DNA of 64,000 bases from Moorena sp. SIO3A5 (GCF_010672205.1 NZ_JAAHHD010000019.1:95963-159962), one strand, 5' to 3'. Positions 4,501 through 59,400 are shown, numbered from the stretch's first letter. Made by a program: numbers and translations. The notes: generated by a model from the letters alone, not told the origin.

Positions 4501-5537
4501 TCCAAGAAGTTATTACACTGTCCACTATCGCAATTCCGGATATAGGTGCGTAATTCAATCAGTAAGGGAATTGATAGAGAACTGTCAGTAGTTAGATCGG
4601 TTTTTGCCCACTCCAATGCTAAATATTGCAGCAACGTAGATTTACCAGAGCCTGGGTCTCCTAAAACCACCAAATACCGATAGCTTTGAGAGTCCTCAAT
4701 TACATCCAATACGGATTTTATCGGTTGTTGATAATAACGCTCTTTAGCTCGTTTCAACTCATCTTTGTCAATTTCCCTTTGTAGTTGACCACTCTCGCGC
4801 AGTTTTTGAGAATCATCCTTAGGAAGTTCATGAATCGCCTCCGGCATCAAGTCATGAACTTCTCGGACATTTTGAGGGATAAATATTTTCCATAGTTTTA
4901 GTTCGTTATAAGCACAGCCACTAGTATCTAAACTATCCAATTTGACATTACCGTAGCTCTCTAGGAGTGCTTCCTGATATTCCCTTAAGTCAAAATCTGG
5001 GATAATTCCTGGTTTAGTGTTTTCTGCGATCGCTTCCAAGGTTTGGGAATCTCGGATAGGCCGTAAATCATCGGATTCCCGAATAATCGTTCTTACTTCC
5101 TTGACATACTGTTTACCAATATAGTGCCAATCAAATCCTTCCGGTAATTCTAATAAGTTAAGCTCAATCCAAGTCTGGGCTAATTTTTCGGTATCTATTC
5201 GTTTACAGCCATACTTAAAGGCACTGCCCAGGATAGCTTTAATGGATTTATCCTTAATATACTGCTTGAGGGGTTTAGTATATTGTTTTACGTCTTGCTT
5301 AGATAAATCAGCATCTTCCAATTCTTCTTCCACTAAAGCTACAAATTCTTTTAAAGCTTTACCCAAGAGTTTTTTCTGGATATTTTGATCCGATAGTCCA
5401 GTATAATCTTTGATAGACTCTTTGAAAAAATCTTTAGTGTAGTCTTCTAGAGCTTCTTTCGCCAAAGGACCAATTACTTCCTTGGCCAGATAGCCACCGG
5501 CACTAGAAATTCCCCAAATTGCTAACCAATCCAGCAT
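1542..5537 (-). CDS. NACHT-family STAND NTPase (bacterial NLR-like) with novel N-terminal domain and C-terminal PBS-lyase HEAT-like repeat arrays
   Basis: 1331-aa ORF. Walker A is GDPGSGKSTLLQYLALEW, preceded by the typical pre-NACHT segment (YGNVKLDSLDTSGCAYNELKLWKIFIPQNV); Walker B is LVMFDGLDEV. After the NTPase come about 17 repeats of a ~31-aa unit (ARSDxDxxVRxxAIEQLAQGYxDHPDTLxLLQE), the PBS-lyase HEAT-like signature. The N-terminal 150 aa (MLDWLAIWGISSAGGYLAKEVIGPLAKE…) match no domain I recognise. Confidence 0.8.
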   Translation of the reverse strand: MLDWLAIWGISSAGGYLAKEVIGPLAKEALEDYTKDFFKESIKDYTGLSDQNIQKKLLGKALKEFVALVEEELEDADLSKQDVKQYTKPLKQYIKDKSIKAILGSAFKYGCKRIDTEKLAQTWIELNLLELPEGFDWHYIGKQYVKEVRTIIRESDDLRPIRDSQTLEAIAENTKPGIIPDFDLREYQEALLESYGNVKLDSLDTSGCAYNELKLWKIFIPQNVREVHDLMPEAIHELPKDDSQKLRESGQLQREIDKDELKRAKERYYQQPIKSVLDVIEDSQSYRYLVVLGDPGSGKSTLLQYLALEWAKTDLTTDSSLSIPLLIELRTYIRNCDSGQCNNFLEFCHQSSGAICHLNQHHLDQELKDGKVLVMFDGLDEVFDPEKRIDVITEIHRFTNRYPKVRVIVTSRVIGYKPQRLRDAEFRHVMLQDLESEQIQNFIEKWHKLNFTDQADKVRKQDRLQKAIETSYRIRELAQNPLLLTMMAILNRNQDLPRDRSELYNQSSRLLLHQWDVERALQEDHRVDPKIIDDEYKQHILRKVAYFMQGNQAGLAGNLISGEDLERIIKEELKLRDVNDPRAVAKVMINQLRTRNFILCFMGADYYAFVHRTFLEYFCAWEFVRKFEKTQDISLEHLKKQVFGQHWRDEYWHEVLKLIVGMIDSKKAGEIIEYLMAQDGEADEFDNLFLAAGCLSEVRNRYQIKSTDSELLNRFKDLIHDTIKYDYQKYLFDPDLIYGISIPAVVAVATHWQDHPDTLRLLQELARCDTDWLVRCKAIVKLAQGWQDNRDTLRLLQESARCDQHWYVRLTAIEQLAQGWHDREAWPTANQPWLWEFLCDRTLHDPYDANEEDKKLGLILRIKGNPRQVALNAILEYYPNHPDTLALLKKLARSDNDWKVRRTAICQLAKGYQDHPDTLPLLKKLARSDNDWKVRATAIEQLAKGYKDHPDTLPLLKKLARSDKDSSVRVTAIEQLAQGYKDHRDTLALLQKWARSDNDSSVRFTAIKQLAQGYKNHRDTLPLLQESARSDSDSWVRGKAIEQLAQGYQDHPDTLAILQESARSDTDSDVRGEAIEQLAKGYQDHPDTLAILQESARSDSDSDVRGTAIKQLAKGYQDDPDTLPLLQQSARSDTDSDVRGKAIQQLAQGYQDHPDTLPLLQEYARSDKDSDVRVTAIKQLAEGYKDHQDTLPLLQESARSDKDSDVRVTAIEQLAEGYQDHPDTLPILQESARSDTDSDVRGKAIQQLAQAWHDQPWLSQFLCDRTLHDPFDPDKDRDYERDDENYNPRQIALQAILKYYPNHSQSRSLLQDRAKHDPDPKLRKFAQKNLE
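1760..3310 (-). repeat. Intragenic tandem array of ~93-nt units encoding HEAT-like repeats (two blocks, internal duplication)
   Basis: Near-identical 93-nt units (…gctaactgttctattgctgtaactcgcacatccgaatcagtatcagagcgagcggattcttgaagta…) recur from ~1760 to ~2930 and again at ~3060-3310. The segment encoding 'WL..FLCDRTLHDP..NPRQ.AL.AILEYYPNH' occurs twice in the protein, which indicates an internal duplication. Confidence 0.8.
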
Positions 5538-51204: not shown

Positions 51205-52779
51205 CTAAGGATTATAAAAAACTCCATCGCTACCACTGATTTCTTCTTCCAAAGATACCCTAATTCCTCGACGAGCAATTTCAAAAATAGTTAAGATAAA
51301 TTCTCCCAATTGAAAATATTGGGTTTGACGTAATTGTTTCCTATGGCGTTGTTTGCCGCTAATCCGCTCATTGATATGGCTTGCATAATATAAAATTAGG
51401 CTAACTAATAGCCAACCTAATAAACTCAATAGAGCTGTTACAATGATAATAATCAGCCAGCCTAAGAACTGACACAACACTTGTAATAATGGATCGTCAT
51501 ATACATCAAGTTCCGAGTACAACAGAGAACTATTGCTACTAAAGATTCCTAAGGCAATCGTTCCCCAAAATCCACAGAAAAGGTGAACAGGAATCGAACC
51601 TACGGGGTCGTCAATTTTCCAAACTTGTAGAAAATATTCGCCTAAAAGGACAAAAATACCGCTGATAGAGCCAATTATAAATGCACTTTTGATATCTACA
51701 AAAGCAGCTGAGGCTGTAATTCCCACCAACCCACCTAAAATGCCATTGATAATTGAGGCTAGACTGGGTTTTCCCAGGATAATTGGACTAAAAAATACGC
51801 TGGATATTCCACCAGCTGCTGCTGCCATCATGGTAGTTGTGATGGTATTAGCTACATAATCGAGATCCTTTGCTGAGCCACCATTAAAACCAAACCAGCC
51901 CAGCCAAAGAATTAAGCAGCCTAAGGTGGCTAAACCCAGATTATCGGCAGAGAACTTTTCAGTTTCGAGACCTTCATATCTATCTGTTCTTAAATTGTAG
52001 CCAAAACGACCTTGTCGTGGCTTTAGTAGCCAAGCCCCTACCAAGCCAGCCATACCACCAACACTATGGACTACAGTTGAACCCGCAAAATCATGAAATT
52101 TTAGCGCCTTGGCTAGCCAACCATAGTGTCCCCAAACCCAGTGACCGGTTACGGGATAGATAAAACCAACCAGGAAAAAACTAAATAGGAGAAATGCCCA
52201 GAATTTTACCCGTTCAGCAACAGCTCCTGAAACAATAGTGGCTGCAGTTCCAGCAAAGACTAACTGAAATAAAAATAGAGCCGCAAAGGAGCGATTAGAC
52301 CAATCTTGATTGAGACAATTAAATCCTGATTCTGGAAAACCAAGATTTCCAAATTGGGGAAAGGGAAGATTAAAAAACAACCCCTTTTGACCCACTAAAC
52401 TTAAACTATTATTTTCTCCTGGAACACAACTGTAAGTGATGCCATCACCAAACATTAAGCCAAAGCCAACTAGCCAAAAGGCTAAGGCTGATATACAGAA
52501 AACTATCAAATTTTTAGCCAAGACATTAGTCGCATTTCTCCGTCTACATAACCCGGCTTCTAACATGGCAAAGCCAGCATTCATAAAAAAGACTAGAAAA
52601 GATGAAACTAACAACCAGATAGTAGACAGGTTAGTGAAATTATTCGTGTTACTATCTTGTGCTACTGCTACACCAAGCCATCCCAGCAGGATGGTAATAG
52701 CCAAAGATAGGCAGAAGTACCAACGGCTCGGTACCCGGATGATTTGGTGTTTTAATCTCTTGTACTTATGTCGAGACAT
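51205..52779 (-). CDS. amt: Ammonium transporter (Amt family)
   Basis: …MNAGFAMLEAGLCRRRNATNVLAKNLIVF…GAVAERVKFWAFLLF… with 11 TM segments. The start is chosen at MSRHKYK. The track ORF continues to 52839, where it overlaps the tnpB remnant. Confidence 0.85.
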   Translation of the reverse strand: MSRHKYKRLKHQIIRVPSRWYFCLSLAITILLGWLGVAVAQDSNTNNFTNLSTIWLLVSSFLVFFMNAGFAMLEAGLCRRRNATNVLAKNLIVFCISALAFWLVGFGLMFGDGITYSCVPGENNSLSLVGQKGLFFNLPFPQFGNLGFPESGFNCLNQDWSNRSFAALFLFQLVFAGTAATIVSGAVAERVKFWAFLLFSFFLVGFIYPVTGHWVWGHYGWLAKALKFHDFAGSTVVHSVGGMAGLVGAWLLKPRQGRFGYNLRTDRYEGLETEKFSADNLGLATLGCLILWLGWFGFNGGSAKDLDYVANTITTTMMAAAAGGISSVFFSPIILGKPSLASIINGILGGLVGITASAAFVDIKSAFIIGSISGIFVLLGEYFLQVWKIDDPVGSIPVHLFCGFWGTIALGIFSSNSSLLYSELDVYDDPLLQVLCQFLGWLIIIIVTALLSLLGWLLVSLILYYASHINERISGKQRHRKQLRQTQYFQLGEFILTIFEIARRGIRVSLEEEISGSDGVFYNP

Positions 52780-52792
52780 CAAAGCAAGCTTT

Positions 52793-54139
52793 CTAGTTTT
52801 TTGACACTCCCCGGTCGCGCATACGCGGGGATTCTTCATTCAACGAGCCAGCTTGCTGAACCTGGCCGGAACCAAGAACAGTAGAGGCCGATTCTCCTGA
52901 AGCGTTTAGATATTTTAAGATCCAGGTTCCGGTGTGCCCCACCGTACCCAAGGCTTTCTTAAGGATGTTTATTGCGGCGTTGTGGTCTCTATCTAACTGA
53001 CAACCACACTTGCACGTATGAGTCCTAGTTGATAGGGACTTTTTAACTTCTTCGCCACAATTGGAACAGTTTTGGCTGGTATATGCAGGATTTACTGCAA
53101 CTGTTACCTTTCCGAACTTGGTGCCAAAGTGCTCCATCCATTTCCTAAACTGATACCAACCTGCATCATTAATAGACTTAGCGAGGCAGTGATTTTTTAC
53201 TAGGTTCTTGGCTCTTAAGTCGACCTAGGCGACCAGATCGTTAGAACAGATTACGCAGCGCGCCGGAGACGAAACCTTAGAATAAAGAAGCCTTAATAAC
53301 AAAGATTTAACCCTTTTATGCATAGCCGACTAACCATAAAGGCTTCTTTATTCTTACGGTAACTTCGTTCCCAGTCTCTTGGCGTTCTCTTCACGTTGCC
53401 TACTTATCTTAAGGTGCTGTCTGCCTAGTCTATTAACTGCTTTATTTCGATTGGATGAGCCTTTCTTCTTGCGAGAAACTCGACGCTGGTAGAACTTAAG
53501 GCGTTTTTCTCCCGTTCTGTAAAAGCAGGGATTTGGTTCAGTTTTTCCAGCGGAATCAGTGTAAAAATATTTTAGTCCAACATCCAAGCCGATAGCTGTC
53601 CCACTTGGCTCTAGTTCCTCTTTGATATCAACTGAAACACAAAACTGGACATAATAACCATCAGCCCGGCGAACTATACGGACTCGCTTTATTTCCTTTT
53701 TATCCAAGCGCCACAAGTCCCATCTACCTTTAAGCTTAAGCTTCCCAATACCCTTTTTATCACTAAAGGTGATTGACTTCTTGTCAGGGGATAACTTCCA
53801 TCCAGACTGTTTATACTCCACTGAGCGGCAGTTTTTCTGGAACTTAGGAAAACCTTTCTTTCCAGGTACTTTTTTCTTGCAGTTATCAAAGAATCGAACA
53901 ATTGATGACCATGCTCTTTCAGCACTAGACTGACGAGCAGTAGAGTTTAATTCATTAGCAAAAGGAAAGTTTTTAGCAAGGACTGCACTGTACTTATTAA
54001 GGTCAAATTTGTTGACCCCTTTATTTTCCATCCAATACCTGAGGCAGCTATTACGGATGAACTGGACTGTCCGGATAGCCTCGTTGATCCCAGAGTATTG
54101 ATGTTTTTTTCCTTTCGCCTTGAACTCTAAAATGATCAT
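52793..54139 (-). pseudogene. tnpB: IS200/IS605-family tnpB (OrfB) remnant split into N-terminal (54139..53354) and C-terminal (53137..52793) pieces; about 70 aa including the RuvC-II region are missing
   Basis: The N-terminal piece is MIILEFKAKGKKHQYSGINEAIRTVQFIRNSCLRYWMEN…IGLDVGLKYFYTDSAG (RuvC-I). The C-terminal piece is …VAVNPAYTSQNCSNCGEEVKKSLSTRTHTCKCGCQLDRDHNAAINILKKA (the zinc finger and RuvC-III). A 216-bp non-homologous insert lies between them and contains a hairpin element. Confidence 0.8.
53265..53367. mobile_element. PATE/MITE-like hairpin element (family 'GGAGACGAAACCTTAGA…TTACGGTAACTTC'), copy inside the split tnpB
   Basis: ggagacgaaaccttagaataaagaagcctta-[loop]-taaaggcttctttattcttacggtaacttcg. 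It has a long perfect internal stem. Confidence 0.7.
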
Positions 54140-54147
54140 CAGCTTCT

Positions 54148-54250
54148 TAAAGTTACCGTAAGAATAGGGTCGCCTTATAACAACAGTTTTAACCCTTTTT
54201 CCATAGCCGACAAACCATAAAGGCGACCCTATTCTAAGGTTTCGTCTGGG
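54148..54250. mobile_element. PATE/MITE-like hairpin element, inverted copy at the 5' (LE) side of tnpB
   Basis: aagttaccgtaagaatagggtcgcctta-[loop]-taaaggcgaccctattctaaggtttcgtctgg. The stem sequence differs from copy 53265..53367 by compensatory changes, and the loop is conserved. Confidence 0.7.
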
Positions 54251-54409
54251 ACCTAAACTGTTCACTCCCTTATTTTACAACATCCAGACTAAAATTCCGG
54301 ATTTTCCTGAAATATTTTTCTAGGCGCGTCAAGCCGCTGTGAGCCTTCATCCCCGGTCATTAGACACGGGGTTTTCGGCTTTGGGGGATTTTTATAAAAG
54401 GACAGAGAT

Positions 54410-56467
54410 TTACGCGAATCTGTTCACAGCAGAAGCTGAGCCATCTTCTAGCTTTGAGTTAAAAGGAAGCTGAGCCTCTGAGTTCGCTAGTTCTTGAAAA
54501 TGAATAACTTCTTTACGGGGATCAGCATGACTGACTTTGACGTGTAAGCGATCGCCTAATTGAACCGAACGCTGGAAACGCATGGGCAATTCTAGACCTA
54601 ACTCTTCTAGGAGAATGTTGCCCTTATTCTCGTTTTCTCGCCACCAACTGAGTACTAATACTTGCCAAACCTGATTCGGGTTACGCCGCAAATATTCCAA
54701 TCCCCAATATTTGTTGGTATCACGTTCTACTTCACTAGCATCCTTAGCTGTTCTGGTTACACTCTGCATCGTTTCGAGCAAATCTTCAGCTTCAAAGGGT
54801 AGGGGGTCACCCCGTAGATGAGCTTTCAGCTGGAAATGAGTCATTAAGTCAGTGTAGCGGCGGATCGGAGAGGTTACCTGGGTGTAAGTTTCCAAAGCCA
54901 AACTAGCGTGGCGTGTTGGGGTAATGCTCATTTCGCTTCTAGGCATACACCGACGCATGGCACAGAACCGCACTGGACCGGCTGGCAATAGCAGCAGTTC
55001 TTCTTGGGATGGAAGTTCTGGCTGGGGTTGTCCTCGGAATGGTAGTGGAATTTGGTGCGCTTGACCATAGCGTCCAGCCACTTCACCTGCCAGAATCATC
55101 ATTTCTGCCACCATTTGCCGTGATGGTGAATCTTCTAACACCTCAATGGTAATTTGGTCATCATTTCCCACCTTGATTACCGACTCTGGCATATGGATGC
55201 TAATCGCCCCCTGAGACTTGCGCCACTTTTGCCGACGCACAGCCAAGTTAGCGATCGCAAACAGTTCTGTTTCTGCCTGTACCCCTAACTGCAACATTTC
55301 ATCTACATCTTCATAAGTCAGGCGATAGGTGGGTTTAATCAGGCTGGGGTGAATCTGATAGTCATAGATGGCACCATCTTGATCCAAGATCACGCCAAAA
55401 CTGAGTGCGCCACAGACTTGACCTTGAACCAAACTCATTGGACCAGTTGCCAGTTCCGATGGGAACATGGGAATCATGCCCGTGGGTAGATATATGGTGG
55501 TACTACGCCGTCGTGCTTCTAGGTCAAGATTATCCCCTGGCATTACCAAGCGGGTTGGGTCAGCGATGTGAATCCACAGACGCTGAGTGCCATCCTCTAG
55601 ATCTTCTATACTCAAACCATCATCTATTTCTTGGGTACTTTCATCATCTATGGTGTAGAGTTTCAGATGAGTTAAATCCAAGCGATCTGAATCTGGGTCA
55701 GTAGGAGGATTTGCCAGGTATTGCTGGGTCAATTCGAGTACCTCACGACGAAATTGAGTTGGGATTTTATGACGCAGCAAGTACTTCTGGTGAGGACGCC
55801 ACAAACCCAAATTTATCAATAAATCGAAGGCATTTTCTGGGTTTTGAGGGCGTTTTAGTGCTTCCAGAGTTTCCTGAACTGCACGAGATGGTTTATCTGG
55901 TTCACTAACGAACCGTTCTAGAGCATCAAAGCGAGTGCGATCGCTATCAACCCACTCTACTTGCTCACCCCCTAACTTTTGCTGTACTCGCTTCAAAAAT
56001 TCTTCTTGTTCCTGGTGCTTTGATTGAGCCGCTGCCAGTTGATGCTTGATTTCAGCCACCATGCTAGCGGAGCGGGGTTCATAGGTTTGTGCTTTTTGTT
56101 TAAAATAGATTTTGTCTTCAAACAGAATACAGTGTGCCGCATAGCACTGGGGTGGACTTTGCTCAGAAAATAATAACTGTGCCATGTCAGCACAGGTAAC
56201 CGCCTCTCCTTCTTCCACCAGTAATTCCCAAGCTAATTCTAAGCTATCTGGGTCTAGATAGGGTTGTACTCGAGCAATAAACTCTGGTATTTGTGATGGC
56301 TCATAAGTAGAATCTGCCACTGTGTAGGTGACTTGTCGAGGATGGAGCTTGTGCAGTTTCCCCCGTTGATCCAAAGCAATCAAGTGGTTCTTGCCCTCTG
56401 GACGATCGACAACAGCGAGATGGCGTTCTCCTTGTAAGCGAAATTCGATTAGTGTTCCCTTTTCCAC
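54410..56467 (-). CDS. RNase II/R-family 3'-5' exoribonuclease (RNB domain)
   Basis: 685 aa. The RNB catalytic region is …IDDESTQEIDDGLSIE…MIPMFPSELATGPMSL…, with a C-terminal S1-like tail. Its position next to rpsR-rpmG is conserved. Confidence 0.85.
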   Translation of the reverse strand: MEKGTLIEFRLQGERHLAVVDRPEGKNHLIALDQRGKLHKLHPRQVTYTVADSTYEPSQIPEFIARVQPYLDPDSLELAWELLVEEGEAVTCADMAQLLFSEQSPPQCYAAHCILFEDKIYFKQKAQTYEPRSASMVAEIKHQLAAAQSKHQEQEEFLKRVQQKLGGEQVEWVDSDRTRFDALERFVSEPDKPSRAVQETLEALKRPQNPENAFDLLINLGLWRPHQKYLLRHKIPTQFRREVLELTQQYLANPPTDPDSDRLDLTHLKLYTIDDESTQEIDDGLSIEDLEDGTQRLWIHIADPTRLVMPGDNLDLEARRRSTTIYLPTGMIPMFPSELATGPMSLVQGQVCGALSFGVILDQDGAIYDYQIHPSLIKPTYRLTYEDVDEMLQLGVQAETELFAIANLAVRRQKWRKSQGAISIHMPESVIKVGNDDQITIEVLEDSPSRQMVAEMMILAGEVAGRYGQAHQIPLPFRGQPQPELPSQEELLLLPAGPVRFCAMRRCMPRSEMSITPTRHASLALETYTQVTSPIRRYTDLMTHFQLKAHLRGDPLPFEAEDLLETMQSVTRTAKDASEVERDTNKYWGLEYLRRNPNQVWQVLVLSWWRENENKGNILLEELGLELPMRFQRSVQLGDRLHVKVSHADPRKEVIHFQELANSEAQLPFNSKLEDGSASAVNRFA

Positions 56468-58281: not shown

Positions 58282-58670
58282 TAGGGAAAGCGGGGATGAA
58301 ATGGTTTTCTAGTGACATACTCCCGACGCTGACAAGCACGGTACAGCGCGGGCTTCATTAAACTAAGCCAGTGAGTCACCTCTGACTCGTCTTCAAAAAC
58401 GTACGTGATACTTTCGCATCATACGGCTCATCATTACAGTACAATCCTTGACATTGGCTCCTCTAGAACGGATTTTCATCTAACTCTTTTGAGTTGGTTT
58501 TGCTTCCGTGTTTGGCATCATGGCAATGTAGGTGTAATAATTCGAGATTTTTGTCTGAATTATTTCCATCCAGTGCGCGTGGTATTATATGGTGCTTTTC
58601 CAACAAATCTCCATCTCTGTTCGCGAAGCGTCGGCTACGCCGAAGGTAAGACCACTGCGGAGTGCATTTC

Positions 58671-58778
58671 CGGAAACGAAACCTAAGATAGGGTCGCCTT
58701 ACTACAAAAGCGCCGTTACCTTTTACCCATAACCTACCAACGTTTGAAGTTACCCTATCTTAGGGTAACTTCAAACCC
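58671..58778. mobile_element. PATE/MITE-like hairpin element (solo copy)
   Basis: …gaaacgaaacctaagatagggtcgcctta…gaagttaccctatcttagggtaacttcaaaccc. Confidence 0.6.
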
Positions 58779-59010
58779 TTCTTGCCGTTTCAAAAGCCTT
58801 CCCGGAGACGAAACCTTAGAGAGGGTCGCCTTATTAAGCCCACCTACTTACGTCGTGTTTTATTGTATATTAATTACGAAGAGTATTCGATGTGCCTTGC
58901 GCGCATTCTTGAATGTACAACCAGCTTCTGGAGAAACCATTGGCTTAGACGGCAAAGTCCTTAAAGGTTCAGATCAGATTGAAAACGATAATCCCAATTC
59001 CGACTCCCAA

Positions 59011-59115
59011 GGAGACGAAACCTTAGAGAGGGTCGCCTTATTTCATATAACTTAAAACTATTACCCATAACCTGTTCCTATAAAGGCGACCCTCTCTTAC
59101 GGTAACTTCAAACCC
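59011..59115. mobile_element. PATE/MITE-like hairpin element (solo copy; a half-copy is at 58804..58840)
   Basis: ggagacgaaaccttagagagggtcgcctta-[loop]-taaaggcgaccctctcttacggtaacttcaaaccc. Confidence 0.7.
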
Positions 59116-59122
59116 AGCAATT

Positions 59123-59400
59123 ATGTTGGTCAGTTCTTACATTGTTGAGCGGGGCTTGATTTTAGAACCCTTTGAAGTTGATGCCAAAACCAACGAAATT
59201 AAAGCTTTACCAGAGTTGCTCAAGAAACTGGCTCTAAAAGGAGTTGTCAATGCCAATGATGCTATTAATACCCAAAAAAAACTTGTGAATTTATCGTCAA
59301 CAGTGGCAAGGATTATATAGCTGCTTTAAAAGGTAACCAACCAAGTCTATTTCAAGATGTTAAAACAAATTTTAGACCGGAATGGCTCTTCCGGCAATAT
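59123..59400 (+). pseudogene. ISAs1-family transposase fragment (frameshifted)
   Basis: …EVDAKTNEIKALPELLKKLALKGVV…. In the next frame comes …YIAALKGNQPSLFQDVKTNF…. This matches the conserved ISAs1 block 'KSNEI.A.P.LL…L.G…T.DAM.CQ…DY..ALKGNQ..L..DV'. Confidence 0.6.

Follow-up and report, generated by a model that had tools for sequence, protein, structure and literature searches.

How did a tnpB gene come to lie in pieces immediately upstream of an ammonium transporter gene, and what is the DNA that interrupts it? As a mobile gene, tnpB is common in cyanobacteria; Cas12 descends from TnpB genes, which are being mined as genome editors. The DNA studied here is a 64,000-nt stretch of Moorena sp. 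SIO3A5, read on one strand (GCF_010672205.1 NZ_JAAHHD010000019.1:95963-159962; hereafter, the window). An original prediction had described the locus as an IS605-type tnpB whose two parts are separated by 216 bp of unrelated DNA, with about 70 aa of the RuvC-II region deleted and with inverted hairpin elements bracketing the N-terminal piece. We reexamined this structure by alignment to intact copies, to relatives in which the site is empty, and to other copies of the hairpin elements.

Boundaries and family of the insertion sequence

The window carries an intact amt gene (51205..52779, minus strand; 524 aa; Pfam Ammonium_transp, 6e-105), which is 97% identical to its empty-site orthologue, and its upstream neighbor is an RNase II-family gene (54410..56467, minus strand). 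The same amt protein was present in at least six contigs of Moorena assemblies with an unchanged RNase II spacing of 1630 bp, and GCA_010672485.1 (NCBI), which also encodes an intact TnpB (P0002), matched the window at 100% identity across 2 kb. In relatives with 97%-identical orthologues, the gap between the RNase II gene and amt was 148-161 bp and contained no IS; such empty sites were found in three metagenome contigs (L121-L123), M. bouillonii PNG, SIOASIH, and SIO3I8. Homology to the empty-site sequences L121 and L128 stopped at 54393 and restarted at 52800, from where it ran downward. Because empty-site homology ended after CCTTTTAT and resumed at AAAACTAGAAAGC, the whole IS was placed at 52801..54393 on the minus strand (1593 bp, including two nested hairpin elements), with ends that are common to other IS copies. 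The interval initially proposed for the element, 52793-54250, thus missed the left end.

The tetranucleotide TTAT, a TAM-like target, lies directly 5' of the left end (54394..54397, minus strand); it also precedes the left end in L001, L034, and L083, and the empty site of M. bouillonii reads CCTTTTAT/AAGG, with TTTTAT at the junction. The IS was inserted 3' of TTAT without duplication, and the expected right flank is missing: 122 bp that lie between TTAT and AAAACTAG in four empty-site relatives, M. bouillonii PNG among them (5858-5979 in L121; approximately 3356-3480 in L128), are absent from the window, where the corresponding junction is 52800/52801. This intergenic segment is unique DNA and not a repeat, and the 122-bp difference could in principle reflect an event independent of the IS. 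NtcA-like and sigma-70 motifs considered within the missing segment were unconvincing, and we make no claim for them. The native DNA between the right end and the amt ATG amounts to 21 nt (52780..52800, minus strand; AAAACTAGAAAGCTTGCTTTG) and is identical in the empty-site relatives. Relatives lack the IS and hold 122 bp more upstream of amt, and the earlier view that the 3' remnant abuts amt held up, with the right end 21 nt from the amt ATG and the omega-RNA region adjoining the gene.

The left end (54250..54393, minus strand) aligns to L001 and other copies and contains a subterminal hairpin, CCCCGTGTCTAATGACCGGGG, at 54351-54371 (CCCC...GGGG), while the right end, together with an omega-RNA-like scaffold (52801..52990, minus strand), carries a terminal hairpin at 52809-52830 (CCCC...GGGG). 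The right-end terminus, ...GGGGAGTGTCAA, is invariant in 24 IS copies, and the flanks diverge right after it. Subterminal hairpins are thus present at both ends, the right-end hairpin covaries over the 24 copies, and terminal inverted repeats are lacking. Only 254 nt separate the left end from the tnpB ATG, and 103 of these belong to a hairpin copy, leaving no room for tnpA; a Y1 (HUH) tnpA was absent from within the element. The element is therefore a tnpB-only (IS1341-like) member of the IS200/IS605 family. As in IS1341-type elements (e.g., ISDra2 TnpB, IS608 ends), OrfB_IS605 and TNB domains are accompanied by subterminal hairpins without terminal inverted repeats or target-site duplication, insertion is 3' of a tetranucleotide (TTAT), and a structured RNA at the 3' end reads into the flank. 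The right end of IS608 finishes in TCAA, as does the right end of the window IS. Unlike these elements, the window copy is a pseudogene, with a nested insertion, a nonsense codon, and a catalytic Glu changed to Val; set beside them, it is also without tnpA and has lost 122 bp beside its right end.

A full-length tnpB pseudogene

Two minus-strand ORF pieces, at 53354-54142 and 52796-53137, matched Pfam OrfB_IS605 (3.3e-15) and Cas12f1-like_TNB (6.5e-18), respectively, confirming the split, IS605-type tnpB. The N-terminal part of the gene (aa 1-256; 53373..54139, minus strand), delimited by the OrfB_IS605 match and alignment, starts with an ATG at 54139. The C-terminal part, from aa 257 to the stop (52793..53264, minus strand), was delimited by translation, alignment, and the Cas12f1-like_TNB match; the coding frame upstream of the C-terminal ORF runs to 53264 and reads ARCVICSNDLVA, a stop, and then VDLRAKNLVKNH.... 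When TnpB was reconstructed by joining the pieces at AKRL/ARCV and searched against 5.8 billion proteins, it was 91-92% identical to intact Moorena TnpBs of 403-411 aa over 98-100% of their length, and an intact TnpB in the same assembly was 92% identical to it. The joined protein aligned collinearly with the intact homologues with zero residues missing, so that the supposed RuvC-II deletion of about 70 aa does not exist: the join at AKRL/ARCV loses no residue.

DNA alignment to three intact IS copies left a 108-nt segment (53265-53372) as the sole foreign DNA inside the gene. The 216 bp formerly taken for unrelated DNA (53138-53353) consist of 127 bp of native tnpB (53138-53264), which a TAG stop at 53225-53227 excludes from the ORF, and 89 bp of the 108-nt insert. 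The possibility that the 216-bp segment would prove to be native in an intact IS was accordingly borne out for about half of it, which is native tnpB with a nonsense codon, and failed for the other half, which is a true insertion. The TAG replaces a Tyr codon, and GTC at 53222-53224 changes the RuvC-II catalytic Glu to Val; AYEDL of the intact copies is thus A-stop-VDL in the window. The EDL motif aligns to solved TnpB-type nuclease structures, and the intact relatives match ISDra2 TnpB structures (E 2e-38). With its RuvC D-E-D triad not intact and its ORF interrupted, the window tnpB is a full-length pseudogene of the TnpB family. The same three-base change, TATGAAGA to TAGGTCGA (A-stop-VDL; 53219-53227 in the window), was also seen near position 5170 of a diverged paralogue (L073) that carries a different hairpin variant; coincidence, conversion, or a footprint could account for this shared change.

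A mobile hairpin family in Moorena

The first hairpin of the locus (copy 1; 53265..53372, plus strand; 108 nt, with a 2-nt GG/CC ambiguity) was not found in any intact homologue. It sits between the AKRL and ARCV codons (256/257), introduces an in-frame TAA after five codons, and has the same inner sequence as the copies in L044 and L096. The second (copy 2; 54147..54249, minus strand; 103 nt) lies within the leader of tnpB, separated from the downstream ATG by 7 nt, and is absent from L001, L002, and L003, in which GGTCGAAGCTGATG is uninterrupted; its termini are atypical (CCAGACG...CTTTAA) and show no GG junction pattern. Since both hairpins are absent from intact copies, the original prediction was right that two hairpin elements foreign to tnpB interrupt and precede it. 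Its description of them as inverted applies to their outer arms, which are mutually inverted, and fails for their loops, which are direct; copy 2 is therefore a "flop" version relative to its arms. Folding as single-stranded DNA gave a z-score of -6.4 against shuffled controls for copy 1 and of -3.2 for the other hairpin, and the hairpin end motifs occurred four times each in the window versus 0.05-0.14 expected by chance. The window holds three more members of the family (58668-58780, 58804-58835, and 59011-59115), one of them truncated. The hairpins at 58668-59115 are interleaved with transposase-like ORF fragments (58846-59320) that resemble the ISAs1-like transposases of L086; a Pfam search with these short fragments gave no match.

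Scanning an exact two-ended pattern over one genome per species returned at least 117 stretches, and all of the matches listed came from Moorena, in five genomes. The sampled loci contained at least 130 hairpin copies in at least 65 distinct contexts, many of them within other repeats. The elements are non-coding and 103-108 nt long (typically about 104 nt), with terminal inverted repeats that are imperfect but conserved (GGAGACGAAACCTTAGA ... TCTTRCGGTAACTTC, followed by a short tail that varies) and ends that read GGAGACGAAACC... and ...GGTAACTTCGTTCC (bounds also written GGAGACGAAACC...GGTAACTTC). The inner stem is perfectly paired over 10-13 bp and was found in 43 different sequences, and the loop of about 45 nt occurs in both orientations. 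GG/CC is present at both junctions and the left flanks are mostly CC or CCC, window copy 2 being an exception. Filled and empty sites could be paired for the window (against L001-L003) and for L021 against L126. The latter two IS copies are 98-99% identical with no mismatch cluster at the junction, and the empty CTGG/CACG of L126 corresponds to CTGG/104 nt/GG/CACG in the occupied L021 (...TCTCC/GG/CACG). The contexts included IS605-type left-end hairpins (L002/L003), loci with group II intron reverse transcriptases, IS607-type tnpA, ISAs1-like elements, other hairpins, the transposase fragments of the window, and intergenic DNA. We looked for an autonomous element bounded by the same ends among 192 5'-end matches (0.9 Mb of sampled loci) and encountered nothing but nested or longer hairpins. 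Together, these data show that the hairpin is an independent mobile, high-copy, palindromic, MITE-like family. The hairpins occur singly in 65 contexts, contrary to the idea that the N-terminal piece is bracketed by them, and the nearest IS copies carry one hairpin or none; as judged from these sequence comparisons, the two window hairpins are independent secondary insertions with no bracketing structure.

Two further observations concern the company the hairpins keep. Group II intron reverse-transcriptase ORFs were present in 20 of the 117 hairpin-centered Moorena loci (L004-L120), and several recurrent contexts (for example, GTGTGCC/CCACGGTAC) resemble the structured hairpins of introns or ISs, which suggests a preference for hairpin-forming targets. 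In M. bouillonii, an IS607-type element (L025, 4154-6332, and L066), in which tnpA (MerR HTH and resolvase domain) is followed by tnpB, has its tnpA broken by two hairpins that are common to both copies. This element, the one of its kind that was examined, was rejected as a parent of the hairpins, its boundaries (GGAAAAGGCTTG...) being unlike the hairpin ends.

A recurrent insertion site within tnpB

At least 25 hairpin copies (27 by flank clustering), all in the same orientation, occupy exactly the position of window copy 1 (AKRL/ARCV; target AAGAGACTGGCACGTTGCG), and elsewhere in the ORF this tnpB family showed only one insertion. At least four variants of the stem and two of the tail are represented at the site. 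The idea that the stem or loop acts as a guide complementary to the tnpB target was rejected because different stems and both loop orientations share the one site. Inserts of one variant match each other at 98-100% identity; for the tnpB sequence on their two sides (300+300 nt), the figure is only about 73-80%. Comparing nearest-neighbor identities of occupied and empty tnpB copies, we found that several occupied copies are nearer to empty homologues than to any occupied one, and copies whose inserts are identical differ from one another at positions only 3-6 nt away from the junction. The contrast in identity between insert and flank, the nearest-neighbor pattern, and the polymorphisms near the junction favor repeated and recent integration at a specific site over gene conversion or the copying of one interrupted ancestor.

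Other accounts of the locus and its hairpins were weighed as well. The structure first proposed, in which 216 bp are foreign, about 70 aa with RuvC-II are lost, and two inverted hairpins form one bracketing structure, drew on the 216-bp gap between the ORFs and on the inverted outer hairpin arms; alignment to intact homologues refutes it, as 127 of the 216 bp encode TnpB residues 257-298, the mutated RuvC-II motif included, and the foreign DNA comes to only 108 nt, so that we give this structure virtually no credence. It is also very improbable that the hairpins are native parts of the IS, such as structures derived from its ends or an intron-like segment of tnpB, and not separate mobile elements. 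Many tnpB paralogues do carry a hairpin at the same position, and one 105-nt variant is in frame and stop-free inside annotated 438-aa TnpBs; yet AKRLARCV is uninterrupted in 106 of the 120 closest homologues, near-identical IS copies differ by the presence or absence of the element alone, most variants, including that of the window, bring stops or frameshifts, and the element also resides in group II intron, IS607-type tnpA, ISAs1-like, and intergenic contexts. A less remote alternative, though one we consider unlikely, is that the recurrent occupancy reflects a single old insertion spread by gene conversion or by proliferation of an interrupted IS, and not targeting. The tnpB paralogues are numerous and 70-95% alike, which makes recombination plausible, and the hairpins shared by the two IS607-type copies in L025 and L066 indicate that interrupted elements can duplicate. 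Against such spread stand the near-identity of inserts in diverged flanks, the polymorphisms so close to the junction, the lack of a mismatch cluster around the site in L021/L126, and the occupied copies that are often closer to empty homologues than to occupied ones. Repeated integration at one site remains the reading we prefer.

The 105-nt in-frame, stop-free variant adds 35 aa, VRSYRKIVEPYYKRFNPFMQSRTPIKAPLSKVSSP, to the full-length annotated 438-aa TnpBs P0060 and P0070; the loci in which it was seen are L127 (1501-2817), L033, L041, L060, and L108. A second small repeat, with the core GTTCGCG[TA]AGCGT, occurs nine times in the window (1435, 3062, 17053, 36723, 45207, 48032, 57244, 58619, and 60389) versus 0.09 expected. 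Related inserts of about 23-60 nt sit at the tnpB codons AY/ED (L077, L082, and L083) and inside omega-RNA loops (L021, L035, L103, and L029).

The right end and the 5' region of amt

For the final 240 nt of 24 aligned IS copies, RNAalifold gave a consensus right-end structure of 39 pairs, 14 of them with compensatory changes, the terminal hairpin included, and this scaffold is intact in the window copy. From its covariation, the right-end scaffold is predicted to be the expected omega-RNA. An Rfam scan of 52000-55000 (E<=1) returned only a chance lncRNA match and nothing for the hairpins or omega-RNA. The 21 nt that precede the amt ATG form the flank equivalent to the omega-RNA guide, and tnpB, the omega-RNA region, and amt all have one orientation; an omega-RNA-like transcript would thus run through the 21-nt flank into amt on the same strand. 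The window copy could still yield a guide RNA with these 21 nt as its guide, and it could also still be moved in trans. An ATG at 52839 inside the right end is in the amt frame with no stop between, which would add 20 codons (MKNPRVCATGECQKTRKLAL; 52780-52839); amt orthologues without the IS start at the ATG at 52779.

The transporter itself shows no sign of decay, given a dN/dS of 0.22 for amt against the empty-site orthologue and of 0.16 for the neighboring RNase II gene, values that span the whole divergence and not just the time since insertion. A simple sigma-70 scan of 52700-54500 found no promoter. We infer that most of the native DNA upstream of amt is gone and that any amt transcription must start inside the IS or pass through it. 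Whether the remnant has been co-opted as a promoter or 5' leader of amt, and retained because it drives or regulates the transporter, is a matter on which the evidence divides. Such a role would fit the mere 21 nt of native upstream DNA, the intact amt that is identical in at least six contigs and under purifying selection close to that of its neighbor, and the shared orientation of tnpB, omega-RNA, and amt. It is weakened by the simple scan, which found no promoter-like site in the IS, and by the time span of the dN/dS figure, which covers the full divergence and not the post-insertion period alone; transcripts could instead read through from the RNase II gene. We regard co-option as possible but doubtful.

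Discussion

The history that we consider highly probable is that a tnpB-only IS of the IS200/IS605 family was inserted 3' of TTAT and then decayed through four lesions, while its ends and scaffold were kept. In this proposed course of events, one Moorena lineage would have acquired the IS 3' of TTAT, in the space that separates amt from the RNase II gene. Between codons 256 and 257, a palindromic MITE-like element of 108 nt would have entered, bringing a stop codon, and a second copy of the family would have been inserted 7 nt upstream of the ATG, parting the start codon from its leader; a Tyr codon would have become TAG, and the RuvC-II catalytic Glu would have become Val. In itself the locus is ordinary, a decayed IS in which MITE-like elements are nested, and its interest lies in the tnpB hot spot.

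Which known class of small mobile elements the hairpin belongs with can be judged from its likenesses. Cyanobacterial MITEs include Nezha, MaeMITE, and others (PMC3184786). Like these, the hairpin is about 104 nt long, non-coding, strongly folded, and high-copy, with imperfect terminal inverted repeats and filled and empty sites (PMC3184786); this comparison, for Nezha and the other named cyanobacterial MITEs, was made by description and not by sequence. Unlike them, it has no IS of matching ends, a 2-bp GG/CC core in place of a longer direct repeat, a variable and perfectly paired inner stem, loops in both orientations, and a pronounced single-site hot spot in tnpB. IS607-type serine transposases act with GG at the terminus and target, a preference for (G)GG, and no real duplication, and IS607 elements have no terminal inverted repeats and almost no target selectivity beyond GG (PMC6188088). 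The hairpin likewise has GG at its terminus and target, no true duplication, and scarless presence or absence, and IS607-type tnpA genes exist in Moorena; the link is one of resemblance only because the ends of the Moorena IS607-type element examined differ.

REPINs and REP sequences are mobilized by RAYT (TnpA-REP) proteins, and cyanobacteria have TnpA-REP subclasses with long REPs (PMC3116915, PMC6006769). The hairpin shares with REPINs an approximately 100-nt structure made of two inverted arms, hundreds of copies, and compensatory stem evolution. A GT[AG]G tag at the foot of the hairpin was not visible in the consensus ends. No RAYT gene flanked by elements was present in the sampled loci, and ORF clustering of 117 loci, a weak test, gave no recurrent HUH-like neighbor.

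A further parallel concerns the insertion of palindromes into coding sequence. Rickettsia palindromic elements were reportedly found inserted in frame in protein genes by Ogata et al. in 2000. The 105-nt hairpin variant, in frame, stop-free, and adding 35 aa to TnpBs, is like them in this respect, while the 108-nt copy in the window, unlike them, cannot be read through.

We tentatively propose, as an idea that we hold with less than even confidence, that the palindromic element of approximately 104 nt parasitizes other mobile elements and integrates in a sequence- and orientation-specific manner, through a GG core, at the AKRL/ARCV position of tnpB, just upstream of the RuvC-II glutamate, and at IS605-type left-end hairpins. 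Such selectivity would be one undescribed for MITEs or IS607-type serine transposases, and the element would be a recurrent natural inactivator of TnpB, with one in-frame variant giving a 35-aa insertion. In the literature searched, we found no description of a Moorena hairpin that repeatedly and precisely targets a single position in tnpB; searches for the hairpin end motifs, Moorena TnpB, or Moorena repeats returned nothing relevant.

For the locus, these results correct the annotation: tnpB is not truncated but is a pseudogene of full length in which MITEs are nested. Nearly all of the upstream region of amt, an ammonium transporter gene that Moorena otherwise conserves, has been displaced by the IS, and this near-complete replacement by the right end of the IS goes beyond what an ordinary decayed IS presents. 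The amt locus thus offers a testable natural case of an IS, or a guide-RNA transcript, taking over the 5' region of a gene. For the TnpB family, a small element that disrupts tnpB repeatedly and with precision, or extends it in frame, affects how tnpB repertoires are counted, and the hot spot at a single tnpB site hints at an integration mechanism of unusual specificity.
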